The notes beneath the pieces were generated by a model. That model had not been told where the DNA came from, searched no databases, and saw only the letters and a program-made list of their open reading frames with translations. This document shows, piece after piece, positions 3,020 to 44,805 of a stretch of DNA of 53,626 bases (its first letter is position 1; each line of letters begins with the position of its first letter). The DNA lies in assembly GCA_001938485.1 (NCBI GenBank), contig MQRK01185036.1, positions 8,984 to 62,609 of the forward strand, given 5' to 3'. Position numbers and translations under genes: made by a program. Source of the DNA: Girardia tigrina. Taxonomy: Eukaryota.

Positions 3020-5020
3020 CTTTGATCAGAGGGTGTTAAACATTCAAAATCATCTATTTTGAAAAATCTAAATCCAAATACTATGAACTTAAAAATGATT
3101 TCACAATCATATAAAATTTGTGATATATTCAGCAATAAGACCTCAACTCCTCTCAGCTTTTTATTCCGATCTTATTTATAAATATACTTGTAATGGGTGT
3201 AACGCCGCATACATTGGAGACATATCTCGTCTTCTCTGCAAAAGGATCAAAGAGCATAGTCGATTGGATAATGGAAGCAATATTGCTGAAAATAATTTAA
3301 AATGTAAAAAGAAAATTGTAGAAATAGATTTTCAAATTCTGTGCAATCGATTTTAAAATTATTCGGAAAGTAACGTTGGAGGCCTTATCTAAAACCTCTA
3401 TGTATCTTAAAATTAATACTCAAGTTTGACACTGAACTTCTCCGTTTAACATTTTCAAATAGAGCTTTTATGAACCGTTAATTACATAATCATTCTTTTC
3501 ATATACAGTGCGTTCAAAAAGTAACTATGCACCTACAATTTCAAAACAAGAACAATCTCCTGTGTTCTAAAAATCAATAACAAAATATTTTGAATAGTCA
3601 ATTTTATGTGAAGAACAATGACCGTCTCTTAATTTATTAAAAATAAGAAGAAAAGAGTCACAACAACTGCTGGAAATGCCCCCCAAGTTCGTGAATACAA
3701 ACGTTAATTCGACGTTTCAAGTTTTCGAATACTCGATGAATTTCCTCTTGGGTGATGGCTTCAATTTGGTGTAGGATGTTATCACGTAGGTCTTGCAAAG
3801 TNNNNNNNNNNNNNNNNNNNNNNNNNNNNNNNNNNNNNNNNNNNNNNNNNNNNNNNNNNNNNNNNNNNNNNNNNNNNNNNNNNNNNNNNNNNNNNNNNNN
3901 NNNNNNNNNNNNNNNNNNNNNNNNNNNNNNNNNNNNNNNNNNNNNNNNNNNNNNNNNNNNNNNNNNNNNNNNNNNNNNNNNNNNNNNNNNNNNNNNNNNN
4001 NNNNNNNNNNNNNNNNNNNNNNNNNNNNNNNNNNNNNNNNNNNNNNNNNNNNNNNNNNNNNNNNNNNNNNNNNNNNNNNNNNNNNNNNNNNNNNNNNNNN
4101 NNNNNNNNNNNNNNNNNNNNNNNNNNNNNNNNNNNNNNNNNNNNNNNNNNNNNNNNNNNNNNNNNNNNNNNNNNNNNNNNNNNNNNNNNNNNNNNNNNNN
4201 NNNNNNNNNNNNNNNNNNNNNNNNNNNNNNNNNNNNNNNNNNNNNNNNNNNNNNNNNNNNNNNNNNNNNNNNNNNNNNNNNNNNNNNNNNNNNNNNNNNN
4301 NNNNNNNNNNNNNNNNNNNNNNNNNNNNNNNNNNNNNNNNNNNNNNNNNNNNNNNNNNNNNNNNNNNNNNNNNNNNNNNNNNNNNNNNNNNNNNNNNNNN
4401 NNNNNNNNNNNNNNNNNNNNNNNNNNNNNNNNNNNNNNNNNNNNNNNNNNNNNNNNNNNNNNNNNNNNNNNNNNNNNNNNNNNNNNNNNNNNNNNNNNNN
4501 NNNNNNNNNNNNNNNNNNNNNNNNNNNNNNNNNNNNNNNNNNNNNNNNNNNNNNNNNNNNNNNNNNNNNNNNNNNNNNNNNNNNNNNNNNNNNNNNNNNN
4601 NNNNNNNNNNNNNNNNNNNNNNNNNNNNNNNNNNNNNNNNNNNNNNNNNNNNNNNNNNNNNNNNNNNNNNNNNNNNNNNNNNNNNNNNNNNNNNNNNNNN
4701 NNNNNNNNNNNNNNNNNNNNNNNNNNNNNNNNNNNNNNNNNNNNNNNNNNNNNNNNNNNNNTTAAAACGCTCAGTGTCAAGGTCAAAGTGTGTAGGGTAT
4801 GTTTTTTGTTCACGAATCTATTTCATAGTTCGATTTCATAGAAATTTGCATTTAAAAAGTCTGCTACAACGCTGATTATCTAAAAATAAACCAGACAATG
4901 AAAGGTGCACAGTGACTTTCTGAACGCACTGTATAAGCTACGAAAACTAATGCTAATTTAGTCTGAAGATGGTAGGGAATCAACCAATATTTATTACAAT
5001 AGATTTTAAAAAATTATGTT
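3020..5020 (+). mobile_element. Penelope-like element 3' remnant (GIY-YIG endonuclease plus 3' region), split by a Tc1 element
   Basis: IYKYTCNGCNAAYIG...RIKEH motif. The 3' region resumes at about 4934 and matches the copy at 21180-21245. Confidence 0.8.
3506..4931 (-). mobile_element. Tc1/mariner (rosa-like) element with TIRs; interior mostly gap
   Basis: TIRs CAGTGCGTTCAAAAAGTAACTATGCACCT / AGGTGCACAGTGACTTTCTGAACGCACTG flanked by TA. Minus strand encodes a ...CIHELGGHFQQLL C-terminus. Confidence 0.85.
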
Positions 5021-5696
5021 CATTTTTTAGTGATATTTCTCCATTATTTTTTAAATTCCATACGTATTTTTATGTTAAAACTCCTTCAGAAAATTGCTAA
5101 CACCATATAACTTTTTAATCCTTACTAAACATTTGAGGGGCGGCAATTTACTACTTGATATAAATTATTAAAAATGAGTTGTTTCAACACATAATTGTAA
5201 AACCAAAACGTAAAGAAGTTAATCTTCGTCATACAAATTTATTTATTTTCGATAAATTTTTCTTTTCTAATATTTATTTCATTATTTTATATATCGAATT
5301 AAATACAAATTATAATTAATCTATAATTTATTATTATTTGTAACATATTCAATGCGAATTTAATATGAACAATTTAAAATGGTTTTCGTTTCTAGTTTTC
5401 TGAAGGAAATCTTTCATATTCTTTTTCTCATAAAATAAATAAATAAATAAAAGACTTGAGTACTTTTAAGTTCTTAATTTCTTCTAGAATACTGGTATTT
5501 TTCATGAGCAATGCTTAAAACGATAAAAACGAATACCCAATGAAGTGCTTCCAACACGTATAATGGACCAGCATATGGTGTCAAATGGCTTTTCATTACC
5601 GAGGAAATTACATTTTGTTTCACCAACTCCATTTATGCCCACATTTGAGAAACAGGTTGTCAAATGTCGCGACCGGGCATCGGTAATCAAGCTATA

Positions 5697-5704
5697 CCAC
5701 GTCA
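5697..5704 (-). promoter_or_regulatory. UPRE-type motif (TGACGTGG) upstream of the calumenin-like gene
   Basis: CCACGTCA about 75 bp upstream of the ATG, in a locally GC-richer patch. Exact match to the XBP1/ATF6 UPRE consensus. Confidence 0.45.
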
Positions 5705-5778
5705 CTAATAAATGAGTAATTTATTGGTATTTTTTATATATAAAGAAACAATAATTGCTGGCAGCCACTAAATTAATC

Positions 5779-6152
5779 ATGGTTTCTAAAACGATGTTTA
5801 TAATTTTCTTTCTAGTTTCGATAAATCTAACAACACGAGTTTCATGTTCCGAAGAAAGTCACCATGAAACAGAAGAACATCACGACGCTGATGAGCATCA
5901 TGAGACAGAAGATCAGCACAGAGACGATTTCACAGAACCATTTCATGACCATTACGACAAATCAGGCCACCATGAAGAGTCCTATGATCATGACGCAGTA
6001 ACAGGGTCACATCATGAATCAGAAGAGTTCAAAGATCTGGAACCAGAAGAAGCCAAAAGACGATTGGGTTTGCTTTTCAACAAGATTGATACAAATGCAG
6101 ACTTAAATATCAGCCGAAATGAATTGTTCGACTGGATGATCAAATCTTTTAA
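5779..6152 (+). CDS. Calumenin/reticulocalbin-like (CREC family) exon 1
   Basis: Signal-peptide-like N-terminus, His/acidic tract, YDHDAVTG...EEAKRRLGLLFNKIDTNADLNISRNEL EF-hand. GT donor at 6153 (phase 2). Confidence 0.93.
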
Positions 6153-6811
6153 GTTAGTTCTTCGGACAAAAGATAATTAATTATTTTATTCTTTTTTATT
6201 TGATTCTCTACAAAATCAAAAAAAAATTATAATTAATTTATTAAATTTTTATTTCAAAAAAATATTGGGAGATTTTTACTTTATTCTCCAAATAATAAGA
6301 TAAAATAGAAACGTCTCTTCGACAGAAATGGGAAGGAAATAGTTTGTCAGATGACAAAGATTTTATATATAAATATATTTTATATATTATCAGTTATCTT
6401 TTTGGAAACATTAAAAAAATATTATTTATTTATCTATTAAAATAATCTTAGAGTTTGATATTTTTCTCTATTTATTGTAATAAAGGATTTATTTTGTTTT
6501 ATAAAATGAAAAATTTTTTTATCAATATTCTTCTTTTAAATTGCTTTGGAAACCCTTCAGTATTATGGAAAATTATTTAATGAAACCGCACATTTTTTAT
6601 ATTAATACCTCACAGAACGACTGTTTCATTTTAATTATCTAATGGATCGTCAGGAAAATAAATCCATCAGATTATTTTCTTTTCCCCCCTTACAAAGTAA
6701 AAGGATAATTATTCTAATTTAAGTATCAATTTATGAGATTTGATATTAGATGTAAAATGAACGTAAAACTCAGTGAAGTATAAAAAATATATTAATAATT
6801 TCAATTTTCAG

Positions 6812-6977
6812 AAATCTCGACATTGAAGATGCCACTTCAAAAATCCAGGATTATGATGATAACAATGATAAAAAGGTTTCTTGGGGAGAATATGTGACAA
6901 AGATGTATAGTCATAGTGAAAAGGAAATCGACGAGATACTCAAATCCAAAAACGATGATATGAAGTCTTTCATATAT
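6812..6977 (+). CDS. Calumenin-like exon 2
   Basis: ttttcag acceptor; in frame NLDIEDA...YDDNNDKKVSWGEY EF-hand; GTGAG donor (phase 0). Confidence 0.92.
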
Positions 6978-7039
6978 GTGAGATTAAAGATTTTTCCTTT
7001 ATTTTTTAGGAAAAAATATAATATAAAATTATATTTATT

Positions 7040-8328: not shown

Positions 8329-8372
<44 letters not shown>

Positions 8373-12839: not shown

Positions 12840-13420
12840 AATACATTTGTTAAAAGTTTTATTAAAAAATCAATATTGTACATGTTTCGGAACTTCTTTT
12901 TCCATTATCAGCAATTATATTAATTAGTTATAATGTACCTTTGTTATAAAGTGAATTTAAAAGGGATAATTTATTTATTTATCTTAATTTAAGATATTAT
13001 TGGATAATAATGACAAGATTCTTAAAAAAAATTTAATTACAAATTTTGAGATTTGAAACGGTTTTACTTAGTTCATTTTGAATATTTATTAATGGGTTGT
13101 AGTGATTCACAAAACTGTCGCTCATAGTGTGAATCAAAGTCCTTCCGTAAAACAGAAAACTCAAACAGAAGAGAATCTATTTTTACAGTGTAACCAATGA
13201 TTAAAAATCTTATTCGATTGACTTGATTATGAATGTTCACTAATCCGGGTTTTGAGATGAGGATTTGTTTCTCCAGTGTACCAGTTATTACACCATAACA
13301 ATTGCACGTATAAACAATTATATTCTCGCCAATACTCTTCTTATGTCTTAAATCCTTAAGAATATGGTATTTTGATGATTTTTTTGTGCTCTTCATTGTT
13401 TTCGTCTTTATCATTTGCAA
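12840..13420 (-). mobile_element. Penelope-like element 3' remnant
   Basis: FSVLRKDFDSHYERQFCESL resembles the PLE GIY-YIG C-terminus (same peptide at 44682-44805), followed by a hammerhead-like motif. Confidence 0.7.
12875..12915 (-). ncRNA. Minimal hammerhead ribozyme motif (G8 mutated to A)
   Basis: Minus strand: ATTG-CTGATAA-T-GGAA aaagaag TTCC-GAAA-CATG-TA-CAAT. Confidence 0.7.
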
Positions 13421-13810: not shown

Positions 13811-14521
13811 ACATTTTCTAACTCATTCTTTTATTTACGTGTGTAATAATCTGTAGGAGTCTTAGCTTTGTTACATGGTTAATTAAATTGTTCTTTTTAT
13901 TAGAAAATTTTTGTAGCTTAAAATGTTATTTCTATCACGAAAAAAATAATTTTCATTTGTTTATTTATACAAGATATTAGAAAAACATACATTTAATGGT
14001 AGATTAACACATAGTAATACTATAGCTATTGATTATGTAACAATAAATATAATAATAATAGTAAGTTATAAATTAAAAATAAATCATAGGAATAAGAGGA
14101 ATAATTATGAGGGGTTTCGACAAATGAGGAATAACAATATTTTAAATTTATCTTAAAAATATTGTTCAGGATTCAATTATAGTTTTTTTTAGTTTTATTT
14201 AAATTTTATCATTATTTATATCATGAAAATATCGAAAACATTTCCTTTCAAAGAAAAAAATGAATGACAATTCCTTCTAATTTATTCGTCTTTTTGTTGA
14301 TATATATTGGATATGTATAAATTGAATGATTTTTGGAAAAAAATAATAAATAAATTAAAGATAAAAAAATTTATTAAATAACTTTGAAAAAAATCGAAAT
14401 TTGATTGTTTAAAAATTAGGAGAGTAAATTGTTTTAAGTTTGAATTGAATATAAATCCTTATTATTTTCGATCGATTATTCAAATAAATTTTTCTGACCA
14501 GTCATTTTTATGAGGATACTA

Positions 14522-16087
14522 CAGGGTGACGCAAAATAAACTCCAAGGTACTTTTCTATTGGATCTTTTTATCCACCTACTTTTTTATAGGTAAAGTATA
14601 TATTTTTAGAATCCTGAGCGTCGCCAAAATCTTATGGTGTATAAAAAAAATCAAAAAAATTAAAAAAAATTTTTGAGACGAAAAATTTAACAAACGTTTT
14701 TTTAAATGAACTTAGAAAGTTTTACCCTAAAATTTGATTCAAATGACGTATACGGATCAGCAAAAAGCTCATCTCGTTTTGATGCTTGTTGAGGAAGCCT
14801 ATGATTATGCGCAGCTCAAAACTCGATTCTGAAGTGAAACAAGAAATGGTCGAGCGAAGATTCCGGAAAAAAGAATCATTGTAAAATGGATTGACGATTT
14901 TCGAGCGACTGGAAGTGTCCATGGAAAGAACAAGCCAAAACGTGTTCGCACCAAAGAAGTCATTGAAGACGTCCGTGAAGCCTTTACTGCAAATCCTCAT
15001 CTATCAACTCAACGCAATTTATTTGTTTCAACTGGCGACACTGACAGCGAAGAAGACGATCACGGAACAGTTCGTATGTCACAAAGAAGCTTGCAGCGAA
15101 TTTTGAAAGAATACTTACAAATGCATCCCTATCATTTGAAAATTGCTCATGCCTTGGAGGAAACCGGCTATGCCGCTCAAATTGAGTTTGCTCGAACCGA
15201 ATTGGATCGATTGGATGAAGATGCAAACAGACTCAACAATCTTCTTTTTACGGATGAATCCCACTTTCATTTGGACGGAAGCGTCAATCGTCAAAACTGG
15301 ATCATGTGGACCGATGAAAATCCTCATTGGTTTGATGTTCGTCGACTTCATCCTCAAAAATTGACAGTTTGGATGGGAATTGGTGTCGAATGTGTTGTTG
15401 GCCCATACTTTTGGGAGCGACAAGGAAATGAGCGCGGAATCAATGGTCGTTGGATGACTGAATTGTATGAAGAGCACGTTATTCCGGAGCTTCATACTTG
15501 GCAGAATTTCAATTCTCTCATTGAGCAGCATGACGGCGCTCCGCCACACATTCTTGGAGATTTTCCTGAATTGTTGGGTCAACAGTTTCCAAATCGATGG
15601 ATAGGTCGCAGAACACGGGCGTATCCTGCTCCAGTTACATGGTCTTCTCGCTCGCCAGATCTTACAGCATGTGACTATTGGTTGTGGGGCTACATGAAAG
15701 GTCGAATTTATCATCGCGAACAACGTTCAAGCACACTCGAAGAGTTGAGAGCAGCGATTGAAGGAGTTACCAATGAAATCCGTGGAGACGGCGTACTTCG
15801 TGAATGCGTTGTGACCGACTACAGACGACGTTTGCATGAATGTTTTCTTAGAGATGGAGGACAAGTTGAAATTCGATAATTAATTGTTGTTATGCTTTTA
15901 TGGAATCAAAAGCTTGTTAAATTTTTCGTCTCAAAATTTTTTTTTAATTTTTTATGTTTTTTTTCGATTTTTTTATATACCATCAGAATTTGGCGATGCT
16001 CAGGATTCTAAAGTAGGTGGATAAAAAAGTAGGTGGATAAAAAGATCCAATAGAAAAATACCTTGGAGTTTATTTTGCGTCACCCTG
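14522..16087 (+). mobile_element. Long-TIR rosa-like Tc1/mariner transposon with frameshifted transposase
   Basis: TIRs of about 180 bp starting CAGGGTGACGCAAAATAAACTCCAAGG with TA TSD. ORF 15076-15879 has FTDESHF, HDGAPPH and SPDLTACDYWLWG; the N-terminus from about 14743 is frameshifted. Confidence 0.95.
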
Positions 16088-18343
16088 TACATCTATATTT
16101 TGTTAATATCAAATTGACACTTAACATTTCTGTCGCCGCACGATTTTCACTAAATATTCGCTCAAATTATCGTCCGATAGTTTCAATTAAACGATTTTTT
16201 TTGCGCCTAAAACTTATCAAATAATTTGAAAAATTTATCGAGCAACAAACAGAAATTTGAATTATCGATCAGATTTATTATTTCAAAATGGAATCTTTTT
16301 CACTCGAGATGAATTTCGCCAGGAATATTTTGCTGGGAATCATGTCCAGCAGTTATTTAGTGATCACAAGTCCGTTTATGGACGCGATCGACACGGTGAA
16401 GATTTGCGAGATTATTTGCGAGTGATCAGAGAACTGATATGTTTAAATCTGCAAACGAATCAAACGAAAAATTTTCAATGGACCCATCAAAACTACAAGA
16501 ATCCAATGGGTAACTCTGCTGCCACCGTCCGATTCTCGGGTAACCTGAGGGTTGCGCGGAATAAATATAATTAAATAAGATATTTCATAACTTAAATTTA
16601 AAATTATTTTTATTAAAATATTTGGTAAAATATTTTCCATAATCTATAAAAGAAAAAATAATGTGAATGTTAACAACTGCTTTATTATTATGAACATATT
16701 CATGTTTCAAGTCGTTCAAGAAATAAAATTTTAAAATAAGATTTCAAAGTAAGTTAAAAGGAAAGTTAATTTTCTGTAGCTGTATAAGATTCCCTTCTCT
16801 TTATCGTTAAAAAAATAACTAAATACACTTTTTAAAGTCATTCTACTCGTTATATCTTCTTCATCGTCTTTTCTCTTTGTCTTTGAAAAAACTTTTTCTT
16901 GTGTACTTTTAAAATTATTATCCTTTATTTACTTTCAAAACTCTTTTCCTTGTAACTACACAATGAGCAAATATCCGACTTCTTTCAAAGGGTTCTTCCA
17001 ACAATCTATTAAAATTTTCCTTTAATTATCTTTATCGCACTAAACAAGTTCAAATAATAATGACAATCTCGAAAAATTTTCAATTATTTATTTTAACTAA
17101 AATCGCAACTCAAAATAATTACAAATCCATTTGATAAAATGGAAGAATCTTTTAAAATTTTGAAATAAATTTTTTAATTTGCTTAATATTAAAAAGTAAG
17201 GGGTATTAATACCCAAAAAATTTTATTAATATTTATATTTTTAAAAACAAGAAAAGTTTAATTACAAATATTAAAAAAATAATTAAAAATTTTAAATATT
17301 TTTCGAAACATGTTTATATATTCCGTTTATATATTATTACACATGTTTATATATTATATATATATATTATAATTTATTAATATTAATATTTCTTTATTCA
17401 TTATTTTTCATTAATTATTGAAGAATAATTTTGATACTAAATCAAGAACGATTAACAAATAAGGAAAATATATAATTTATGTATTATAAAGTACATTAAC
17501 GGTCTTGTTATACAAATGAATAATATAAATATTGTGTCCTGTTAAGATTGAAACCCAATTTAGAGACAAAATTGGGAAAATAATGAATCCAAAAATCATC
17601 AATCAAAGTTATTTCAAAAAAAGATAATTCAAATTTTATTCTTTAAAAATGAAAAAATATTATTGAATATTATAATTATTATTTCTTTGTAGGAAAATAA
17701 ACTATCTGGCGTTACGAAACATTTGTTTCTAGTTCATTAAGATATCATCTAGATTTCTGTATAGCTTTATTTTAGTAATATTATTTTTTTCATAAAACTT
17801 TTGAGTAAAAATAAAATAACGCAAAAATCGAAAGTGACTCTACATTTCTTTTGTACTTCTTAATGTTTTGGATTTGGTTTTTAAATCAGATTTCAGATAA
17901 GATTGCAATGTAGAACATTCCGTGACAATAATTGTTTTATCTAGATCAATCTTCTGTTTATTTTTGTATTAAATTTGATATTTTTTATAGTTTTTTTATA
18001 TTTTTTTATAGTTCTTTCCATCAATCCGATCTTCATCGACGTGTTTGCCGAGTGATCTATCGCTTAAAGTGGTATACGTTATATACAGATGCTTTTTATC
18101 GCGATCTATATTCAATTGTAGATCAATCTATTACTATTACACACTCATATATATATATATATATATATTTGTTAATAGTTTTCTAAGTTGTGCGGCGCAT
18201 CCACCTAGAAGTTCAAGGCTGTTTTAAAAGAGTTTCTAACTTAAAAAAAAGAACACTCAGAAGTGCCAAAGTCTTGAATCTTATTAGTGATACAAGCGAA
18301 GCAAAAGTATTTTTGTATTGTTTTGTTTAAAAAACGTGACAAA

Positions 18344-19093: not shown

Positions 19094-19223
19094 AGAACCT
19101 TAGTTTAAATTTACTTCTTAAAATAAATAAATATTACCCTTAATATTCAATGATATGAAGAAAAAATATATAGTTTAAAATCTTTCATTAAAACTAATAT
19201 TCAAATATTTGAGAAAATAAATT

Positions 19224-19271
19224 ATTATTGTTGATGATAGAATATGACACTTTCGAAACATGTTCAATAAT
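19224..19271 (+). ncRNA. Degenerate minimal hammerhead ribozyme motif
   Basis: ATTATTG-TTGATGA-T-a GAA...TTC-GAAA-CATG-TT-CAATAAT: 7-bp stem I, C3>U change, weak stem II. Confidence 0.6.
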
Positions 19272-20719
19272 CAATATCTTAAAAAAAAGATTTACGTTTA
19301 AAAAACAAGAACCACTGTAGTATTACAATACTGAAACTTAACATTGTAAAACATTTATTATTTGGAAGATGAAGAAAATCTCTTTTGCTTAGTGTTTCAT
19401 TTCTATTTTGGCACTGTTTCTCGGTCTCAAGGGATTACCTTCGCAGAAATATTTTCATTTTACTGATTTTTTTTTATATTAATGAAATTTACACTGTTAA
19501 ATTACATTGAATTTTATCAAATTTCAAATGTATAATATTTTATTATTATACAACAACAAAAATTATTAAAATCAAAAAAGGATTCTTGATTACAAAATTA
19601 TTAGAAAAATATATATTCAATAAATATAATTTTATTTTACGTCATATTGAAGAAAATAATTATAATTAAAAAATAATTATTAAAGTAATTATTTTAACTG
19701 AAAATTATTCCGAAAACCTTTTTTTCGGGATCTTCTAAATATATCAAAAATATAAAATTTTTTACATTATATACAAAATTAAATTATTTATTTTTAATAA
19801 AATGAAATTTTTGACTTTTAGTTGTGTTGCTTATAAAAATGAAGGAAATAGCTTAACTAAGTAAAAGGTGAAAGCACCAATCAATTGGTGTGGCTTTAAA
19901 AGTAAAAAAATTTCAGGATTTTGAATGGTTTAAATTATGTAATTTATAATAAAAATAATAATTTTTTTTATAAATTCAAAAGATCTACACTTGAAAATAG
20001 TTTTTAAGTATTATATTTTGACAGTTTCACCACCATCATCAGACCTCTGATTATGTGCTTTTATCGTTTTTATATGAGAAATCTATGATAATACAATATA
20101 TTAAGCATTGAAATCTCACATTCTTCTTTAGATCATAAGATATTTGTAACAATAATAATTTTTAAAATCCTTACCAAGAGTCTTAAAATCATTGGGACTA
20201 ATAACTCTTACCCTGTACTCTTTACGACTGTACTCTTGCACTTGTTTGCTAATGAGATGACAGGTAAAAAACACATAATTATCTGAAAATAGCAGTCATA
20301 TAAAATTATATTATTATAAAATATATTATCATTTACAATTTAAGTTATATTATTACTGGATTTTGGAACTATTATTGTATTGTTCAAATTGTGAGAAATT
20401 GAAAAGTTTTAAAAATCATATGTTTTTTTATAATTTTTTAACGACCACAGAAACAAAAAACAAAACTCTTCATGACTATTTTTTTCTTACACATTTTATT
20501 ACATTAAATATAACTAAAAAAGTATAACAAAAGGAGCAAGTAATATTATAAACGAGATCCTTCTGATCCAAATTTTGTTACATATTATAAAAGTAGGGTA
20601 ACAAATTGGTCAGGTAATTTCAATCAATAAACCCGCTTTACTAAAAAATAAAATAAAATGATATATTTTAGGTAATTAAGTTGAATAATCTTCTATAAAT
20701 TAAACTAGGTGAATCAGTA

Positions 20720-21250
20720 AAACAGTCTCAATAATTTAGCACAAATAGCAGACTTTAAAATTCTTAAGAAAATAAATGCCGAAAATACATTGCCTCTAAT
20801 ACTTTATAAATTCATGCTCCGATCCTGTTTATAAGTATACTTGTAATGGGGATAATGCCACAAATATTGGAGAGACATCTCGTCATCTCTGCAAACAAAT
20901 CAAAGAGCATAGTCGGTTGGATAATGGAAGCAATATTGCCGAACATAATTTAAAATGTGAAATGAAAATATAAGAAAAGTATTTTCAAATTTTGTGCAAT
21001 CGATTTAAAATCTATTGGGAGACAGTAACGTGTGAGGCCTTAGTAATAAGATCCATGGATCGAAACTTAATAATCAAGCTTCACACTCAACTTCTCTGTT
21101 AAAAATTTTCAAAAAGGACCTTTTTGACATGATTAATTGAATATTCATTACTTTCATTTAAAAAAATGCAAAAAGTAATATTAATTTAGTTTGACAATGG
21201 CGAGGAATCCGCGAAAATTAATTACAATACATTTTAAAAAATTGCGTCCA
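20720..21250 (+). mobile_element. Penelope-like element 3' remnant (paralog of 3020-5020)
   Basis: VYKYTCNGDNATNIGETSRHLCKQIKEHSR GIY-YIG motif; degenerate hammerhead at 21189-21225. Confidence 0.85.
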
Positions 21251-25085: not shown

Positions 25086-25133
25086 GTAGGATCGATATAG
25101 AGAGAGCCGAGCGAATACCGGGTCGTGTTGCAG

Positions 25134-25665: not shown

Positions 25666-26515
25666 CTAGACGATGTTGGAATAAACTGCGGAGGAACAAG
25701 AATAACCGATCTACGACTTGCTGACGACATAGACCTAATCGGCAAAGATGAGGCAGAGATTCAGGAACTCACAAATAGATTACACAAAGCATCAAACAAT
25801 TTCGGAATGGAAATCCACAGACAAAAAAGCAAAGTAATGGTTTCAGGAAACCATAACAACGAGGTTAAACTGGAGATTTTCATTGAAGGAGAGAAGCTGG
25901 AACAAGTAAGGAGTTTCAAATATTTAGGCTCTACTATCACAGAGAATGGGGGAAGCGAAGAAGAAATCAGAAGCCGGATTGGTATATCAACAAGCGCAAT
26001 GATTAAGCTTAACACAGTTTTTAACCTCAAAGAAATCCATCTCAAGAGCAGATTAAAGATCACTAAGGGCAACACTCCTCTATGGATGCGAGAGTTGGAC
26101 AATAAATCAGAAGAGTATGAATAGGCTTAAAGCGTTTGAAATGAAGTGCTACAGGAGAATGCTGAAGATCACGTGGAAAGAAAAGAAGACAGGCGACTTT
26201 GTTTGGAGGAGAGTGACAGAAATACTAGGTAAAAGACCGGAATCAATAGAAGAGATCATCTAGAGAAGGAAGCTGAAATTCTACGGTCATCAAATAAGAA
26301 AACAAGCACTAGCAAATGTTATGATTGAGGGAAGAGTGGAAGGAGAAAGACCAAGAGGAAGACCAAAGAGGCAATGGATGGACGATTTAAAAGAATGGAC
26401 TGGACTGAGTATGGAATGTCTGAGAAAAGAAGATATAAATAGACAGATGTGGCGAAGGCTTGTTTATAATTGGGTGCACCCACGGCCCAACGACTAAGGT
26501 CAAAAGAAGAAGAAG
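25666..26515 (+). mobile_element. 5'-truncated RTE-type LINE
   Basis: RT C-terminal part (LRLADDIDL, FKYLGSTITE, GRPKRQWMDD); (AAG)n tail; 9-bp TSD ATTGAAGAT at 25657-25665 and 26516-26524. Confidence 0.92.
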
Positions 26516-26831
26516 ATTGAAGATAAGATCGATTTGTATCCGGGTCAAAAACCTCTCGCGTTTAAACGCTATGTTGATGACAATTTTCTTATTTTCGGTA
26601 ATCAAATTGATTTAGATCCATTTTTAGTGGGAACTGATCTTTTTGGCGCCGATTTTTTGTGCAGTAGTATTTTGAATTTTGTTGAAAGAAATTAAAGAAT
26701 ATATATACATATGTGTGTGTGTTATGCCAAATGAAAAATTATCGATTTAATATCAAAAAATATCGATGTAATATGAAAAAACGAAGTCCGGATGAAAATC
26801 TTCTTTTAATAACAACACTCATCCATTTAAA

Positions 26832-26868
26832 AATATATTTCGACGGATCTACCGTCATCTTCAGGTCC
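26832..26868 (-). ncRNA. Hammerhead motif; core intact but 3' strand of stem I missing
   Basis: Minus strand: GGAC-CTGAAGA-T-GACGG tagat CCGTC-GAAA-TATA-TT-ttt. Confidence 0.7.
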
Positions 26869-29216
26869 CTAATTAATAATCAATTCACCTGTATATAAAT
26901 ACAAAAATGATGATTATGTAATCGATTGCATGAAATCATGCTAATCAAAAATTCTCAATAAGCTGTTTGAGACTGCCGATTGAACATTGATTTTAGAGCA
27001 ACGTGACCTAATTAACAATGCTTCACACGACACTCTCTCCCAATAACTGTCAAAATGCTCACACAGAATTTTGAAATTATCAAAATTAACATCACATTTA
27101 CATTTTTTTCTATGTCCTGCAATATTACTCTTACTCTCTTTTCGACCATGTTCTTGAATTCGTCTACAGAGATGACGGGCAGTCTCTCCAATGTATGTGG
27201 CATCGCACCCATTACATTTATATTCATAAACAATATCAGAACAAAGTGTCAAAGGTGTAATCGATTTATTTCTGAATATATTTTGAATTTTATGAGATCG
27301 TGATATAATTCTTAAATTTAATTCATTGTTAGTTGCTTTTAACAATGCATTTTTAAAGTTTTTAAATCCTTCAGAATAAGGTACAATTAAACAATATTTA
27401 GGCATATTATTAATATCTAATGATCCTTCGATTTCTTTCTTAGATCCATCAGGAGAAGCCAAACTCTGATTTTTCGATAAATCTTTCAAAAGTATTTTAT
27501 CTACTGTTTCCTTTAATAATTTGTCTAGAAAAGATTTAGAATAACCATTCTGATTTAACAACGACCTTTCTACAGATTTAACAAAAGTGGAAGACAACGA
27601 CCAGGAGCGATAAATTAAACCTTTAATCATGTTTCTTTTATACTTAAGTTCACAAAAACTATCTGGTGAAGTATATAAACCTGTATCAGTTTGCTTCCTA
27701 TAAATTCCAGTCTTGTAACTATGATATTTTCTTTCAACCAAAAGATCCAGAAAAGGTGACTCCATTCTTTTCATTTTTAACTGTAAAAGTAACGTTTGAA
27801 TGTAACGAATTCATGAAATTCAAAAATGGAAGTACATCAGCCTGATTTTTAAAAACTAGAAATATATCATCAACGTATCGTTTATATACTAAAGGTTGAT
27901 TTCCATCAAACAGTTTAATTTTATTTTCAATCTTTGAAAGAAAAACAGAAGCTAACGTTGGTGCTAACGGTGAACCCATAGCAATCCCATCAGCTTGCTT
28001 ATACCACTCATTATTAAAAAGAAAATGAACATTTGATGTTGCAAAGCTCAATAACTCTCGAAACCCAACCTCGTCGATAATATGATGTTCTGAATTATTA
28101 TTTTTCCATAGATCACAACACAAATTCAAAGTTTCAATCAAAGGAACATTTGTAAATAAACTAGAGATGTCAAAAGAAACCATAAATTCACCTTCATTCT
28201 GTACTTTATAAGTAGAAATGAAATCAACAAATTCAAAACTCTCAAGACACAAAAATTTCAGATGATAATAGAATGTTACTTTTACAGTTGAAAATGAAAA
28301 GAATGGAGTCTTACCTTTTCTGGATCTTTTGGTTGAAAGAAAATCTCTTAGTTACGAGACTGGAATTTATAGAAAGCAAACTGATACAGGTTTATATACT
28401 TCACCAGATAGTTTTTGTGAACTTAAGTATAAAAGAAACATGATTAAAGGTTTAATTTATCGCTCCTGGTCGTTTTCTTCCACTTTTGTTAAATCTGTAG
28501 AAAGTGTTAATACACTAAGTTCGCTGTTAAATCAGAATGGTTATTCTAAATCTTTTCTAGAAAAATTAATAAAGGAAACAGTAGATAAAAATATTTTTGA
28601 AAGATTTTTCGAAAAATCAGAGTTTGGTTTCTTCTGATGGATCTAAGAAAGAAATCGAAGGATCATTAGATATGAATATGCCTAAATATTGTTTAATTGT
28701 ACCTTATTCTGAAGGATTTAAAAACTTTAAAAATGCATTGTTAAAAGCAACTAACAATGAATTAAATTTAAAAATTGTATCACGATCTCATAAAATTCAA
28801 AATATGTTCAATAATAAATCTATTACACCTTTAACACTTTGTTCTGATATTGATTATGAATATAAATGTAATGGGTGTGATGCCACATACATTGGAGAGA
28901 CTGCCCGTCATCTCTGTAAACGAATTCAAGAACATGGTCGAAAAGAGAGTAAGAGTAATATTGCAGGACATAGGAACAAATGTAAATGTGATGTTAATTT
29001 TGATAATTTCAAAATTCTGTGTAAGCATTTTGACAGTTATTTGGTGAGAGTGTCGTGTGAAGCATTGCTAATTAGGTCACGTTACCCTAAAATCAATGTT
29101 CAATCGACAGTCTCAACCAGCTTATTGAGAATTTTTGATTAGCATGATTTCATGCAATCGATTACATAATCATTATTTTTGCATTTTTATACAGGCAAAT
29201 TAAATTATCACTCATT

Positions 29217-29255
29217 GACCCGAAGATGACGGTAGATCCGTCGAAATATATTGTC
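29217..29255 (+). ncRNA. Minimal hammerhead motif (U4>C)
   Basis: GAC-CCGAAGA-T-GACGG tagat CCGTC-GAAA-TATA-TT-GTC. Confidence 0.72.
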
Positions 29256-29497
29256 TTGAAATATATTTTTAAATGGATGAATTTGGTTATTAATATGAAA
29301 AATTCTTTCAAAAATACAAAAGTTTGCAATTCAGTTTGTCACCAAGGAAGAAGTTGTTATCAATATGATTAAAAATTGACATCTGGAGTCTATTTTGCAT
29401 AATAAATCGATATTTTTTCATATTAAATACATAATGTTTCATTTTAAATTGAGAAATTTTCATTTTAAAATAATATCACACCAAAAACATTTTTGGT

Positions 29498-30322: not shown

Positions 30323-31542
30323 TTAGGTTGGTCGAAAAATATTGGCGGTTTTGGGACACAAACTTCAAAGACGTGCAAATTCACAGAAACAATCGTTTAT
30401 TAATCAAAATATGAACCGTTGGCATCAATACATTTTTGCCAATGAGAAACAAGTTGTTTTATTCCATCAGCATAAAATGCATCGATTCTCGAAGCGACGA
30501 ATTCTTGGAAGGCATTTTGAGCATCATTTTGGTTTTTGAAAATTTTTTCACGTAGGAAGTTGTACAAATGCCTGAAAAAGTAGAAGTTCGTTGGCGAGAG
30601 GTCTGGTGAATATGGTGGATGAAGCAGGGTTTCATAGCCAAACTCATTAAACTTTTGAAGAGTCACTTTTGAAATATGAGGTCTAGCGTTATCATGAAGA
30701 AGGATGGGACTTTCTCGATTGACCAATCCCGGACAAAGGGTTTTCAATTTTTTATGCATTTCATCAATTTCATGACAGTACCCCTCCACTGTGATTTTTT
30801 CACCTGGATTGAAGAAACTATAGTGGATGATTCCAGCATCACACCACCAAACTGTCACCATAACCTTACGGGGTGTTAGTTTCGGTTTTGGAAAGTGTTT
30901 CGGTACTTCATCTTTGTCCTACCACTGTGCAGATCGACGTCGGTTATCATACAGGATCCATTTCTCATCACAGGTAACAATACGATCAAGAGATGGATCG
31001 TTTTTATTGCGAAGATGATTAGTAGAACAAATTTCATAGCGTAGGTTCTTTTGATATTCATTCAAATCATGTGGAACCCATTTATCAAGTTTCTTGATTT
31101 TTCCAAGTTGTTTTAAATGATCCACGACTGTTGAATGACTAATGCCCAACCCATCTGCAAGTTCTCTGATTGTTGNNNNNNNNNNNNNNNNNNNNNNNNN
31201 NNNNNNNNNNNNNNNNNNNNNNNNNNNNNNNNNNNNNNNNNNNNNNNNNNNNNNNNNNNNNNNNNNNNNNNNNNNNNNNNNNNNNNNNNNNNNNNNNNNN
31301 NNNNNNNNNNNNNNNNNNNNNNNNNNNNNNNNNNNNNNNNNNNNNNNNNNNNNNNNNNNNNNNNNNNNNNNNNNNNNNNNNNNNNNNNNNNNNNNNNNNN
31401 NNNNNNNNNNNNNNNNNNNNNNNNNNNNGGCATAAGATTTCAAATAATATCTAACACTAATGCATTTAAACTTATATACATATCAAAGTAGATAAACAAA
31501 TTATAAAGCTCAAAAACCGCCATTATTTTTCGACCAACTTAA
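30323..31542 (-). mobile_element. Mariner element (Hsmar1/cecropia-like), disrupted transposase
   Basis: TIRs TTAGGTTGGTCGAAAAATATTGGCGG; TA TSD; WVPHDL, TCDEKW, HDNARPH and YSPDLSPTN motifs. Confidence 0.95.
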
Positions 31543-35197: not shown

Positions 35198-36987
35198 TTA
35201 AGTGTATAACTTAGTTTTTTGGATTTTTTTGCAGAACAGACAAGTTTATTTATATGACATAATAAGTTTTATTCTAATCAAAATATTTTCCATCGTTAAT
35301 TATGACTTTCGACCATCTTTCAGGCAAATTATGAATTCCATCGAAAAAAAGTTTTGGTCTTTTGATGAGATCCATTGTTCCAGCCATTTTTTATATGTTC
35401 CTGGTTTCTGAAGTGCTGGTCCCGAAGAGCGCTTTGCATTGATCAGAACAGATGATAATCTGATGGGGCACAATCTGTTGAATAGGCAGCATGCGGTAGA
35501 ATTTCTGATTTAAGTGCTTCCAACGTGTTTTTTACTTGTTTTGCGTCATGTGGCCGAGAATTGTCATGGAGCAAAATCACTGTGCGCTGTTTATTGGCTG
35601 GAATAGGACGTTTTTCCTTCAATGCATCGTTCAATTTCATTAACTGTTGTTGGTAACGTTCTGCATTAACAGTTTCATTCGAATTCAGCAGCTCATAGTA
35701 CAGTACACCTTTCTGATCCCACCAAATGCACAACATAACCTTGCTTCCATGAATGTTTCTTTTTGCTGTTGACGTGGACGGCTCGCCGGGATGAACCCAC
35801 GATTTCTTGCGTTTAGAGTTAACATAATAAATCCAATTTTCATTTCCAGTCACAATATTATGCAAAAACGACCATCTTCGTTGTCTTGTAAGCAATGAAT
35901 TGAATATCAGTAATCGACTTGATTCAATTCATGTGGTATCCATTTTCCTTCTTTTTGAATCACTTTCATAGCATGTAGACGTTTACTTATGGCTGCTTGG
36001 GTAACATTTAACTGTTTTGCAAGCTCTTTCTCTGTTTGAGTAGAATCTTCCTTCAGTAATGATTCCAAATCTTCATCTTCGAATCTTTTTGGTTGACAGG
36101 ACCGCTCTTTGTCACTTACGTCGAAATCTCCACTTTTGAAACGTTTATACCAGTTCTCGCAAGTCTGTTGAGTTGGTGCATGTTGACCATAAGTTTCTTC
36201 AAGAAGCCGAAAACTGTCTGCAGCTTTTTTCTTTTGATTAAAGCAAAACAGTAGTGCTTCCCGCAAATGCTGTTTGTTGGTATGAAAGTTGTCATGCTAA
36301 AACGTGATTAAAAATATGTTTATGACGCATTTGAGGTCAATGACCTACTTAATTTTAATGCGTCGATTTCAGCACTTTAAAAATCTGTACGTACGACTGT
36401 AAAATAATGCTTATTACAAACTAGTAAATAACCCGTCATGTATGACGGATATAATTATATAGAGTTAAAATTTCAAATAAATTTTCAAGACATTTTTTTT
36501 TAAATTCATTTGTTTTCCACATTTAATCATTAGAAATAAGTGTCTTCACAAAATTTCTTTATAAACTATATTTTTGGTAAATACTCGTTCATTATTCAGT
36601 AAATTACCCTTTTGAGAAGTTGCCATTGTTGAAAATCCTACCGAAAAATATAATGAATGAAAAATGTTGCATTCCAAAAGGCCAACCCAAAATTTGCTTA
36701 AAATGTCAAAATTAAGAATGTTCATATTATCTACTTACAATTGTAAGTAGATAATTATATTAATAATAATTCATATGGAAAATTATCATGAATAATTCTG
36801 CTAATAATAATTTTCCATATGAATTATTATTAATATAAATATCTACTTACAATTGTAAGTAGATAATATGAGCGTTCTTGACAGCGTTAGTGAGGCAGTG
36901 AGGCAGGCAGTGAGTGACTTGGGTTTTTATAAGATAAGATGTTACACCATCTCTTAGAAAATCCAAAAAACTAAGTTATACACCTAA
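35198..36987 (-). mobile_element. Mariner (Mos1/mauritiana-like) with a Helitron insertion in its 5' region
   Basis: TIRs TTAAGTGTATAACTTAGTTTTTTGGATTTT / AAAATCCAAAAAACTAAGTTATACACCTAA; ORFs 35907-36266 and 35443-35895 (WIPHEL, HDNSRPH, APSDYHLF). Confidence 0.95.
36421..36939 (-). mobile_element. Non-autonomous Helitron
   Basis: Minus strand begins A|TC (TCTTATCTTATAAAAA), has a subterminal hairpin CCGTCAT-AC-ATGACGG and ends CTAG|T; no TSD. Confidence 0.85.
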
Positions 36988-37325: not shown

Positions 37326-37671
37326 GTACGATGAAATGATAATTACAATCGATTTTGATTTTAAATATTTTCATTATTATTATTAATTATTATTATTTAT
37401 TATTTATTATTATTGTAAGGAAGGATGTTATTATGAATTAATTGCTATTCAAATTTGTTATCATTCAAATGTGTAATAATTTATCGAATATTAATTAAAT
37501 ATTCTTTGAATAAATTCAATTTGTCTAATGGCACTTTTATTAATAAAAAACCATAAAGCCATTTTAATTTGAAATTTTTATTGGAAAACATGTTTCAGCC
37601 TGTAAAGAACGCAAATTAGATAATAAAATTTATTATATAAAATATCTTAATAATCAAATTCATCCATTAAA

Positions 37672-37709
37672 AAATATATTTCGACGGATCTACCGTCATC
37701 TTCCGGTCA
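37672..37709 (-). ncRNA. Degenerate hammerhead motif (U4>G, stem I 3' strand missing)
   Basis: Minus strand: TGAC-CGGAAGA-T-GACGG tagat CCGTC-GAAA-TATATT. Confidence 0.6.
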
Positions 37710-38894
37710 CTAATTAATAATCAATTCACCTGTATATAAATACAAAAAGGATGATTATGTAATCGATTGCATGAAATCATGCTAATCAAAAATTCTCAAT
37801 AAGTTGGTTGAGACTGCCGATTGAACATTGATTTTAGGGCAACGTGACCTAATTAGCAATGCTTCACACGACACTCTCTCCCAATAACTGCCAAATGCTT
37901 ACACAGAATTTTGAAATCATCAAAATTAACATCACATTTACATTTTTCCTATGTTCTGCAATATTACTCTTACTCTCTTTTCGACCATGTTCTTGAATTC
38001 GTTTACAGAGATGACGGGCAGTCTCTCCAATGTATGTNNNNNNNNNNNNNNNNNNNNNNNNNNNNNNNNNNNNNNNNNNNNNNNNNNNNNNNNNNNNNNN
38101 NNNNNNNNNNNNNNNNNNNNNNNNNNNNNNNNNNNNNNNNNNNNNNNNNNNNNNNNNNNNNNNNNNNNNNNNNNNNNNNNNNNNNNNNNNNNNNNNNNNN
38201 NNNNNNNNNNNNNNNNNNNNNNNNNNNNNNNNNNNNNNNNNNNNNNNNNNNNNNNNNNNNNNNNNNNNNNNNNNNNNNNNNNNNNNNNNNNNNNNNNNNN
38301 NNNNNNNNNNNNNNNNNNNNNNNNNNNNNNNNNNNNNNNNNNNNNNNNNNNNNNNNNNNNNNNNNNNNNNNNNNNNNNNNNNNNNNNNNNNNNNNNNNNN
38401 NNNNNNNNNNNNNNNNNNNNNNNNNNNNNNNNNNNNNNNNNNNNNNNNNNNNNNNNNNNNNNNNNNNNNNNNNNNNNNNNNNNNNNNNNNNNNNNNNNNN
38501 NNNNNNNNNNNNNNNNNNNNNNNNNNNNNNNNNNNNNNNNNNNNNNNNNNNNNNNNNNNNNNNNNNNNNNNNNNNNNNNNNNNNNNNNNNNNNNNNNNNN
38601 NNNNNNNNNNNNNNNNNNNNNNNNNNNNNNNNNNNNNNTATTGCAGGACATAGGAAAAAATGTAAATGTGATGTTAATTTTGATAATTTCAAAATTCTGT
38701 GTAAGCATTTTGACAGTTATTGGGAGAGAGTGTCGTGTGAAGCATTGTTAATTAGGTTACGTTGCTCTAAAATCAATGTTCAATCGGCAGTCTCAACCAG
38801 CTTATTGAGAATTTTTGATTAGCATGATTTCATGCAATCGATTACACAATCATCATTTTTGTATTTATATCCAGGTGAATTGATTATTAATTAG

Positions 38895-38935
38895 TGACCT
38901 GAAGATGACGGTAGATCCGTCTAAATATATTGTCG
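38895..38935 (+). ncRNA. Minimal hammerhead motif (G12>U)
   Basis: TGAC-CTGAAGA-T-GACGG tagat CCGTC-TAAA-TATA-TT-GTCG. Confidence 0.68.
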
Positions 38936-40149
38936 TAAAATATATTTTTAAATGGATGACTTTGGTTATTAAAAGAAGATTTTCATCCGAACTTCGTTTT
39001 ATCAATATAAAATATTGATCAGGGTTTACTAACCATTTAAACTTGGAAATCTTCCCCTTTTATATTAAGGCAATGTTTTATAATATTATATAATATGCCC
39101 CGGGGTCAGTTGATGCAATTGAAATTGACCTTGCAATTGAATATTCCGGTGATATCATGACATGAAATCACCGGAATTTGAAATCTAGTGATGTCATGAG
39201 ATTTGACATCATTGAAGTTCGATATTACTGAATGTGGTGAGGAATGACATCATCACACAACCCTTCTGTACCATCGTCAGTTCTGTAAGAAAGTAAATCG
39301 TTGTTCTATTTATATTCGGAACACCATTACGTCACCATATCTTACATCATAATACTCTAATATGATTGGATGAATCGCTTTGAACGTTTAAACAAGGTTA
39401 GTGATTCTTAATTAACAGTGCTTCAGTAATAATCATTTCATAGTTTCAGTCACAATTACTAATTAAAACCCGAAAATCATTCTCATTTACTCTCTTGTGA
39501 GTTCCATGACAACCGTTAATGTGATCTAAAATAGAGCTTTTCTACTTGATTGGGTATGAAAATTCAAATTGGTGTTCTTAATTGTCTCTTATCTTGGAAC
39601 ACCCTTTTTGTTACATTTGCGTGATTTGATCTAATCTCCTTGTATTCACTGTCGTCATTGTATTCATCGATTTCACTATTAAAAAACATGTTTTCGATGG
39701 TATTAACAACATCACAATTTGAATGCAAACATTTATTTACAACACAAACAGATTCTTCACAACAATTTTCATAGGTCATCTTTCTTTGATTGATATAGTT
39801 TTTTATTAAATATTCAAATATGAAAAAATCAATGAAGGAGAAATTTTAATATTACATTTTAATTTCTCATAATTTTATTGGATAAAAAGACATTATGTAA
39901 TTTTTTAAATAAACATTAATTTTTAAAATATATTAAATTTAATAAGTTAAAATCGTTTACTGAAAATATTATTAAAATTCATAATTATCAAACTTTAATT
40001 AATTAGTACTTAAAATTAATATCATTAAATTAATTTCATTAGATTCAAATAATCAATCAAATAACATATCAACCCCATCTGAGTAGCAGAGTCACAACTC
40101 TAAACAGCATACAAATAACAAACTAACAACATTCCAAATTATCCCTCAC

Positions 40150-43712: not shown

Positions 43713-43742
<30 letters not shown>

Positions 43743-43746
<4 letters not shown>

Positions 43747-44391
43747 GCCCTACCAAAAGTCACCGACCACCGGTGTGTTCGCAGTAATGAGAGATTATGA
43801 GAATTTTTAAACGAATGATATATTTACAAANNNNNNNNNNNNNNNNNNNNNNNNNNNNNNNNNNNNNNNNNNNNNNNNNNNNNNNNNNNNNNNNNNNNNN
43901 NNNNNNNNNNNNNNNNNNNNNNNNNNNNNNNNNNNNNNNNNNNNNNNNNNNNNNNNNNNNNNNNNNNNNNNNNNNNNNNNNNNNNNNNNNNNNNNNNNNN
44001 NNNNNNNNNNNNNNNNNNNNNNNNNNNNNNNNNNNNNNNNNNNNNNNNNNNNNNNNNNNNNNNNNNNNNNNNNNNNNNNNNNNNNNNNNNNNNNNNNNNN
44101 NNNNNNNNNNNNNNNNNNNNNNNNNNNNNNNNNNNNNNNNNNNNNNNNNNNNNNNNNNNNNNNNNNNNNNNNNNNNNNNNNNNNNNNNNNNNNNNNNNNN
44201 NNNNNNNNNNNNNNNNNTTCAGGAAGAGTGGCGCAATATTCCTCTGGACTTCCTAGCAAGTGTCGTCAACTCGATGCCAGATAGAGTGAAAGAGGTTATA
44301 AAATGCAAAGGACACTGTACAAAGAATTAAAAATTCTCATAATCTCTCATTACTGCGAACACACCGGTGGTCGGTGACTTTTGGTAGGGCG

Positions 44392-44394
<3 letters not shown>
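43743..44394 (+). mobile_element. Young Tc1 element in (TA)n; interior mostly gap
   Basis: About 65-bp essentially perfect TIRs; Tc1 C-terminus EEWRNIP..LASVVNSMPDRVKEVIKCKG. Confidence 0.92.
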
Positions 44395-44435
<41 letters not shown>

Positions 44436-44439
44436 GAGT

Positions 44440-44805
44440 CTTGTGAACGAAGTTTAGTATTTCGAAAATATAATTTGATTAAAGCTTTTTTTATATAATT
44501 ATTGGACATGTTTCGATGTTTACATACATCATCATCAGCAATTTTCGGATGTTTAGTAAATGAATATTGAATAGTTTGAATAATGCAATTTTAATAAATA
44601 TAATTTACTTTAAAAGGTGACGAAGAAATTAAACATTATTATTTATGAAAATATTATTGGGTAATAATAGCAAAAAATATTTTACTTAAAAATTTTAAGT
44701 ATTGAAATGACCTTACTTTGCTCATTCTGAATGTTAATTGATGGGTTGTAGTGTCTTATTAGTAGAGATTCACAAAACTGTCGTTCATAATGTGAATCAA
44801 ATAGA
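44440..44805 (-). mobile_element. Penelope-like element 3' remnant
   Basis: FDSHYERQFCESLLIRHYNPSINIQ GIY-YIG C-terminus, followed by an intact hammerhead. Confidence 0.82.
44501..44542 (-). ncRNA. Minimal type-I hammerhead ribozyme with intact catalytic core
   Basis: Minus strand: AUUG-CUGAUGA-U-GAUGU auguaa ACAUC-GAAA-CAUG-UC^-CAAU; GUC cleavage triplet; palindromic ACAUGU stem/loop III. Confidence 0.88.

Follow-up and report, generated by a model that had tools for sequence, protein, structure and literature searches.

Minimal hammerhead motifs of decayed PLEs in a Girardia tigrina contig, and loop III palindromes common to several families

Introduction

The closest described relatives of the motifs considered here are the minimal hammerheads (min-HHR) in the pseudo-LTRs of metazoan Penelope-like elements (PLEs). 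These are type I ribozymes with a short helix I, an extra base between positions 9 and 10.1, a G10.1-C11.1 pair and a palindromic 15.2-16.2/loop 3 segment, sited 3' of the RT-GIY-YIG ORF (PMC4209133). Several families occur per genome, mostly with one motif per truncated copy; pairs on opposite strands are found, and a U3-A8 variant is known (PMC4209133). By our hand count of the alignment of Cervera and De la Peña (2014), ACGU is present in 29 of 56 motifs, and a palindrome recurs between families in 8 of the 11 species that have several (PMC4209133). In the double hammerheads of avocado sunblotch viroid and of the newt satellite, an unstable stem III is rescued by two palindromes (PMC4209133, PMC6155905, PMC6466107), and the same rescue by palindrome pairing is reported for PLE dimers (Lünse et al., PMC5785218). 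PLEs with a C-terminal endonuclease carry RT followed by GIY-YIG with conserved Cys/Cys/His/His (PMC8557442; PAc, PMC11167929), arms that are inverted and truncated, a tail on a single end, and a hammerhead in the terminal repeat (PMC8557442, PMC11167929).

The window, a stretch of 53,626 nucleotides from Girardia tigrina contig MQRK01185036.1, shares all of these min-HHR and PLE features, and the dimer proposed below resembles these rescued stems. It differs from the published min-HHR in its 6-nt palindromes (4 nt in most published rows) and in the damaged cores of most copies. ACAUGU and AUUAAU are absent from the 56 published rows as read, whereas AUAUAU is present as the word of Drosophila Penelope (PMC4209133). 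Unlike double-hammerhead dimers, the window motifs are single or in opposite-strand pairs, with no same-strand tandem, and pairing between them is predicted. Unlike the described C-terminal-endonuclease PLEs, all window copies are broken; they are probably Penelope/Poseidon.

An initial annotation of the letters alone had proposed about nine hammerheads from three PLE lineages, and a loop III palindrome that could confine dimerisation to transcripts of the same family. If true, such a selected pairing key would mean that retrotransposons recognise their kin through RNA base pairing, and would bear on what PLE hammerheads do. The present analysis extends a described ribozyme class by a few members and by one common 6-nt palindrome, ACAUGU; it is also a first rough test against the family-code idea.

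Hammerhead motifs in the window

All nine proposed motifs are hammerhead-like sequence. A covariance model (R2) whose training set was 20 outside motifs, with zero window sequence and with the two closest relatives left out, recovers six of the nine at E<=0.005, the 37672 motif at 0.063 and the 4961 motif at 0.21 (E-values rough), and misses the 21189 motif at E<=5. Its ten best matches are eight of the nine plus 812-862 (+) and 20002-20050 (-). Because R2 is free of window sequence and recovers most of them, the nine are not chance matches; a second model (R1) includes window motifs, and its matches there were not counted as independent. The covariance models replaced a first descriptor score, which placed only the best few motifs above shuffles. 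The Rfam models, which evidently miss minimal PLE variants, returned no window hammerhead at E<=1, and a viral_contigs search gave no PLE. Single-strand folding of 10 motifs was no better than that of shuffles (z -1.4 to +1.0), as expected because such motifs would not fold alone.

Eight of the nine motifs have the end of a PLE endonuclease about 75-150 nt to their 5' side, on their own strand; the 4961 motif is counted among them after removal of an inserted transposon. The R2 matches and endonuclease neighbours bear out the annotation's view that these hammerheads are real and PLE-linked. Judged by sequence, the nine are PLE minimal hammerheads, mostly damaged. The order CUGANGA...GAAA...UH of the type I core is found, yet the claim that every motif fits CUGANGA-U-stemII-GAAA fails an exact-core scan, which retains two of the nine (44501 and 26832), and the 44501 motif alone is complete. 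The extra nucleotide between 9 and 10.1 is U in all nine. The G10.1-C11.1 pair stands in seven, and the palindrome between 15.1 and 16.1 is kept in eight.

The ACAUGU group comprises hammerheads A1, A2 and D:

44497..44546, minus strand: hammerhead A2, complete; stem I AUUG/CAAU, exact core, U insertion, stem II; ACAUGU at 44506-44511, C17 at 44505
44685..44807, minus strand: 3' end of the A2 PLE GIY-YIG endonuclease, 97% over 38 aa to P0006 (locus L003)
12871..12919, minus strand: hammerhead A1 (12875 motif); G8A, stem I AUUG/CAAU, ACAUGU at 12880-12885
13036..13409, minus strand: remnant of a PLE endonuclease, frameshifted, lying upstream of the 12875 motif
19223..19272, plus strand: hammerhead D (19224 motif); U3, A.C mismatch at 10.1-11.1, 7-bp stem I, damaged stem II, ACAUGU at 19258-19263

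The A2 motif is near-identical to the motif in L003, and its stem II is unlike that of A1 (GGAA/UUCC). Hammerhead D lies in a multi-copy segment (contig depth at 19200-19349), and tblastn found no endonuclease upstream of it. The flanks of the three ACAUGU copies are 56-68% alike.

The family B loci carry AUAUAU:

26824..26872, minus strand: hammerhead (26832 motif); exact core, AUAUAU, 15 nt holding the stem I 3' strand missing
26941..28351, minus strand: frameshifted RT + GIY-YIG ORF remnant (Pfam RVT_1, GIY-YIG)
28272..29142, plus strand: inverted ORF remnant; 91% identity between this arm and the one on the minus strand
29212..29260, plus strand: hammerhead (29217 motif); U4C, AUAUAU, stem I GAC/GUC
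37665..37713, minus strand: hammerhead (37672 motif); U4G, AUAUAU, the same 15 nt with the stem I 3' strand missing; endonuclease end at 37785-38037
38891..38939, plus strand: hammerhead (38895 motif); G12U, AUAUAU, stem I GAC/GUC; endonuclease end at 38640-38819

In family B, RT precedes a C-terminal GIY-YIG with invariant C199, C202, H221 and H233, as in EN+ PLEs, and no Cys motif was seen in the linker. Core changes are private to single copies. The four motifs belong to two inverted-pair insertions, each with one longer end (truncated arms and a one-end tail), so the nine motifs represent about seven insertions. A subfamily of the two arms short by 15 nt was rejected, since no informative site groups them and two set them apart. 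No model match was found downstream of an endonuclease remnant at 39350-39541.

Family C and two candidates absent from the initial annotation complete the inventory:

20815..21113, plus strand: family C endonuclease remnant, ~80% aa to P0001
21183..21231, plus strand: decayed hammerhead C (21189 motif); U3/A8 and G12A as it stands; in aligned contigs G12 at 21214, AUUAAU at 21217-21222, U17 at 21223
3026..3505, plus strand: second endonuclease remnant of family C, with a 3' end that resumes beyond an inserted DNA transposon
3503..4932, no strand: TA-flanked, Tc1/mariner-like TIR element splitting this family C copy; interior mostly an N gap
4955..5003, plus strand: family C hammerhead remnant (4961 motif); GAA lost, with AAU in its place, palindrome broken to AUUUAU
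20002..20050, minus strand: candidate; CUGAUGA core, G12A, AUAUAA
812..862, plus strand: weak candidate; U3 core, stem I GAC/GUC, non-palindromic AACUU

The family C contigs carry G8 and G12 as majority letters, and the G10.1-C11.1 pair of the 21189 motif is recovered among their majority letters as well. The AUAUAA of the 20002-20050 candidate is one change from AUAUAU, and its stems I and II are unlike those of family B. No endonuclease was found for either candidate. The three lineages first proposed hold as palindrome groups but are an undercount: ACAUGU motifs have three different stem IIs, so stem II, said to differ between lineages, also varies within one of them. The window copies are largely dead, and cleavage and dimer formation are predictions.

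Register and pairing of the palindrome

Between 15.1 and 16.1, the palindromes are the 6-mers ACAUGU, AUAUAU and AUUAAU. The first had been read correctly, but the 8-mers AAUAUAUU and AAUUAAUU given for the other two take in core A14 and U17. For family C, the aligned contigs place G12 at 21214 and thereby define AUUAAU, which shifts the register of the 21189 motif relative to an AAUUAAU/AAUUAAUU reading.

Nearest-neighbour computation predicts +3.5 to +7.7 kcal/mol for cross-group pairs versus -3.6 to -18.4 for self pairs with stem I, so the three window groups are not expected to cross-pair. Any two unlike palindromes mismatch automatically, however, and incompatibility alone is therefore no proof of a code. 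The three ACAUGU motifs (A1, A2 and D) are predicted to be fully cross-compatible, A1 x A2 being equal in stability to either self pair (-11.8).

Among 27 aligned motifs, 88% of cells pair versus 57% after shuffling, and the innermost palindrome pair shows seven two-sided changes, counts that kinship between the sequences inflates. The innermost bases are adjacent and cannot pair within one strand. Stem I is more variable than the palindrome.

Palindromes and families

Outside loci were drawn from one seed pattern, YIGETxRHL, and 80 of 136 were kept. A palindrome-free descriptor found motifs in 33 of these 80, 25 of them palindromic as parsed, versus 0-2 matches in each of 10 shuffles. Window and metagenome loci were grouped into 24 families with limits set by hand. 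These use 11 palindromes, and ACAUGU occurs in 10 of the 24, a share inflated because the single seed favours one PLE subclade.

The palindrome is shared in all 37 pairs with at least 70% endonuclease identity (one broken copy left out), and sharing falls with distance, from 120/152 pairs at 50-59% identity to 11/84 at 20-29%. The palindrome is thus constant within a family, as lineage specificity requires, but one word is common to many families. Set against the endonuclease, the comparison first suggested as a check on the code, the same ACAUGU recurs in families only 27-31% identical. Stem II follows endonuclease clades, whereas ACAUGU is found in no fewer than seven clades or lone branches. 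A palindrome common to so many distinct families is likely not a family-specific code.

A code predicts fewer sharers within an assembly, and an excess was seen: 7 of 18 same-assembly family pairs share their palindrome versus 3.2 expected from shuffled labels (P(<=7)=0.97), the same assembly not being proof of the same host. With the window ACAUGU motifs merged, the figure is 4 of 11 versus 1.5; among different-assembly pairs it is 42 of 258. The three Ga0126343 families (57-64% endonuclease identity) all have ACAUGU. The remaining 11 same-assembly pairs differ, including window A, B and C; in the three ERZ1740067 families all palindromes differ, as they do between B and C, which are sister families with 53% endonuclease identity. 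The palindrome is a clade trait that drifts slowly and is likely needed for the known dimer fold.

Proposed mechanism and alternatives

The probable reading is that the motifs are mostly damaged type I minimal hammerheads at the 3' ends of several decayed PLE families, in which the palindrome was likely kept for pairing and not as a family label. The data show motif sequence, position, covariation and sharing; from these we infer a dimer fold, its cleavage and a role in transposition. In an active ancestor, a transcript across tandem pseudo-LTRs would carry two motifs. A single A15.1-xxxx-U16.1 segment is unable to form a stable hairpin, so a 6-bp stem III would arise from the pairing of two palindromes. 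The topology then implies that each core would draw CUGANGA, stem II and GAAA from one copy, and UH plus the 3' strand of stem I from the second. The palindrome would be kept because the two copies need it to pair for cleavage. The partner would be chosen mainly through location on the same RNA, possibly with help from an element protein. Since the palindrome can change only by paired substitutions, it drifts slowly and a small set of words is reused, so it marks broad clades, recurs in distant ones and is common to families of one genome. That unlike palindromes exclude each other would be a by-product.

The motif could instead be a protein-assisted single ribozyme or a protein-binding element, dimer cleavage being incidental. 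The Anolis PAc hammerhead cleaved only with protein, and in vitro its insertion did not depend on cleavage (PMC11167929). Dimers of minimal hammerheads showed weak cleavage (PMC4209133), and two family B arms are without the stem I strand. This is nonetheless unlikely, as the two-sided changes at the innermost adjacent pair demand a second strand and palindromy is kept in 11 different words.

Since partners would form stem I between them as well, palindrome and stem I together might make up a composite key under selection that excludes other families and keeps co-resident ones apart. Stem I does vary more than the palindrome, and 37 of the 42 different-assembly palindrome sharers fall short of 3 bp in one or both of the swapped stem I helices, as do 3 of the 7 same-assembly sharers. 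However, 4/7 same-assembly sharers pass versus 5/42 elsewhere, the reverse of exclusion and explained by kinship, and the numbers are small and the families hand-set. We consider such a key quite improbable; that the palindrome and the two exchanged stem I helices block cross-cleavage, families like B and C having switched palindromes under selection, is very doubtful.

The palindrome as a code by itself is scarcely credible: three unlike words in one window with unstable predicted cross-group pairs, constancy within families, and the differing B/C and ERZ1740067 families speak for it, but it is largely refuted by sharing across families, from ACAUGU in 10 of 24, the same-assembly excess and the Ga0126343 trio to the stable A1 x A2 pair, the published prevalence of ACGU and the recurrence of AUAUAU in Drosophila Penelope.

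Hammerhead Motifs and Their Genomic Setting

The initial annotation placed nine hammerhead stretches in the window, named here by their starts (4961, 12875, 19224, 21189, 26832, 29217, 37672, 38895, and 44501). All are present, but its claim that all fit the CUGANGA...GAAA core is true of only two in an exact scan (44501 and 26832). Each of the remaining seven carries at least one core change, and of the two exact matches, 26832 is missing its 3′ stem I strand. A covariance model of the hammerhead (R2) was trained on 20 motifs from outside metagenome loci of Penelope-like elements (PLEs), with all window sequences and their closest relatives (loci L001 and L003) excluded because circularity had to be avoided. 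Its top 10 window matches include eight of the nine motifs, six at E≤0.005 and two more weakly (37672, E 0.063; 4961, E 0.21), such E-values being rough; 21189 gave no match in this search of the window. The top 10 also add two hammerhead-like motifs absent from the initial list, 812-862 (+) and 20002-20050 (-). The latter lies one change away from AUAUAU, its stems differ from those of family B (26832, 29217, 37672, and 38895), and it is possibly another family using that word.

In tblastn searches with the window ORFs and nine database relatives, eight motifs have the end of a same-strand PLE endonuclease about 75-150 nt upstream; the same searches found no endonuclease for 19224. The Pfam domains of the window PLEs are RVT_1 and GIY-YIG. 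Motif 4961 fits the layout after removal of the first of these features:

3503-4932: DNA transposon with inverted repeats and TA flanks, lodged in a PLE 3′ end
39350-39541, minus strand: end of an endonuclease from another PLE family, 75% at the amino acid level to protein relative P0005

The CUGACGA core word occurs downstream of the second feature, where the covariance model found no hammerhead; the relative L002 carries ACGCGU. The window motifs share their architecture, inserted base, and palindrome with the PLE hammerheads of Cervera and De la Peña, who also describe, in the available text, multiple families within one genome and dimers that cleave weakly (PMC4209133). The nine motifs are real, of an already known kind, and mostly fossil.

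Family B's four motifs terminate two inverted pairs whose members are 90-91% alike, the same layout as that of PLE insertions described in the accessible part of PMC8557442. In both pairs the minus-strand arm (26824-26872 and 37665-37713) lacks 15 nt present in 29212-29260 and 38891-38939. The missing segment is bounded by 10-nt direct repeats, and the end of the first repeat coincides with the predicted site of cleavage. This loss tracks neither substitutions nor tail, which makes it look recurrent, and it may stem from slippage at the cut or from template switching there. L001 also has the short form, with a matching stem I of its own.

Palindrome Register and Distribution

In hammerhead numbering, the A15.1-U16.1 segment is ACAUGU in 12875, 19224, and 44501 (A1, D, and A2) and AUAUAU in family B. 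For family C (4961 and 21189), contigs of four sequencing runs were aligned at 80% likeness. Their majority letters, 88-97% of summed depth in run X1 (24-39 contigs), differ from the window at 21196, 21203, 21205, 21213, and 21214, and bring back G8, a 5-bp stem II, and G12 at 21214, giving the palindrome AUUAAU and U17. At 21217-21223 no differing letters occur among the rows listed, where minor variants may still exist. The palindromes first annotated hold in their 6-mer part, while the 8-mers also took in core A14 and U17. Stem II is different in each of A1, A2, and D, with paired changes between A1 and A2 that are not expected from decay; stem I AUUG/CAAU is common to all three. An AT-rich alignment gives 56-68% likeness for their flanks, compared with 93% between A2 and L003. 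The preferred reading is of two or three families within one clade.

A metagenome contig scan, whose seed pattern favors one PLE subclade, yielded 136 PLE relatives, of which 80 were used. A hammerhead descriptor without a palindrome requirement matched 33 of the 80 loci, 25 of them palindromic as parsed (0-2 matches in each of 10 shuffles), and with relaxed settings, a scan of the sequence 3′ of the endonuclease recovered 37 loci. The tree, made by a quick method on 141 columns, holds 36 of these (L061 was too short) plus four window rows, and leaves 17/36 inner branches open. Stem II agrees with its well-supported clades. ACAUGU is spread over seven or more clades or single branches, some pairs being only 27-31% identical; ACGCGU, AGCU, and ACUAGU each appear on two different branches. 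Palindrome sharing declines with distance: 37/37 pairs at ≥70% identity, 29/36 at 60-69%, 120/152 at 50-59%, 41/123 at 40-49%, 15/261 at 30-39%, and 11/84 at 20-29% (pairs not independent; broken L038 and 4961 excluded). A U3-A8 core variant occurs in L012, L013, L014, L075, and L005, from four separate families whose palindromes are all other than ACAUGU.

The Proposed Family-Specific Code

The palindrome had been proposed to let ribozymes dimerize only with their own family's transcripts, a code that would predict a deficit of sharing within assemblies. The 24 families were delimited by hand, some from sequences outside the tree (window A1, window D, and L005). Between them they use 11 palindromes, and ACAUGU serves 10 of the families. 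Same-assembly family pairs share a palindrome in 7/18 cases, against 42/258 for other pairs, although a single assembly may contain several hosts. Shuffled labels expect 3.2 same-assembly sharers (P(≤7)=0.97), and with A1 and D left out the figures are 4/11 observed and 1.5 expected. With no deficit, the code is not borne out. The code was to fall if loop III did not track PLE families, and by that criterion it fails at the family level; from these sequences, the palindrome follows broad clades only. Counting against a shared-palindrome reading, 11/18 same-assembly pairs have different palindromes, and all three families of assembly ERZ1740067 differ.

A hand count of Fig. S3 of PMC4209133, from extracted text with the GAAA column displaced, finds ACGU in 29/56 motifs and a palindrome reused in 8/11 species with several families. 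AUAUAU appears there in five Drosophila species. A literature search, judged at listing level, found no published proposal of a family-specific palindrome code, and the available part of a 2026 retrozyme preprint does not mention palindromes.

Predicted Pairing

In an alignment of 27 motifs, 88% of the cells in the three helices are paired, compared with 57% after shuffling and 27-42% after sliding. The innermost palindrome pair consists of adjacent bases that cannot pair within one strand, and its seven two-sided changes therefore favor pairing of the palindrome between two copies. The dimer topology would exchange the stem I strands between copies too. In nearest-neighbor sums that ignore junctions, A1 with A2 is predicted at -11.8 kcal/mol, the same as either self pair, A2 with D at -15.1 kcal/mol, and between-group pairs at +3.5 to +7.7 kcal/mol. 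Unlike palindromes are thus predicted not to pair, as originally stated; in this model, such exclusion follows from any palindrome difference whatever. Palindrome and stem I might together keep families apart as a composite key, which does part most of the distant families (37/42 different-assembly sharers fail). However, only 3/7 same-assembly sharers fail, so that these data give no sign of selection for exclusion. Isolated palindrome helices are predicted to be weak (-4.6, -0.8, and -0.2 for the three words), which favors pairing inside a single tandem transcript over free exchange. Reviews, in their available text, state that dimers need both the palindrome and a tandem arrangement (PMC6765202, PMC6466107, PMC6155905). 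The Anolis PAc hammerhead is described, in the accessible part of the source, as requiring protein and as dispensable for insertion in vitro (PMC11167929).

Other Features of the Window

The window has a GC content of 28%, seven N gaps, and abundant transposon remnants, many of them mariner/Tc1-like (e.g., 14520-16089, 30400-31480, 35440-36300, and 45300-45830). Further features are:

5755-6180, plus strand: likely host exon, His/Glu-rich stretch with an EF-hand-like motif at its end and no Pfam match
25101-25418, plus strand: likely host exon, Pfam ETF domain
25478-26124, plus strand: RT fragment, beginning like the family B RT

Between 21400 and 29400, 17-25% of words occur in runs labeled as three other organisms, and contigs from two of these three runs cover the family C endonuclease; this overlap may reflect close relatives or shared PLE families. 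A mir-124 precursor, indicative of an animal genome, lies at 23963-24030 (+), with an Rfam score of 34.4 bits (below the gathering score of 49), E 0.0006, and a hairpin z of -5.4.
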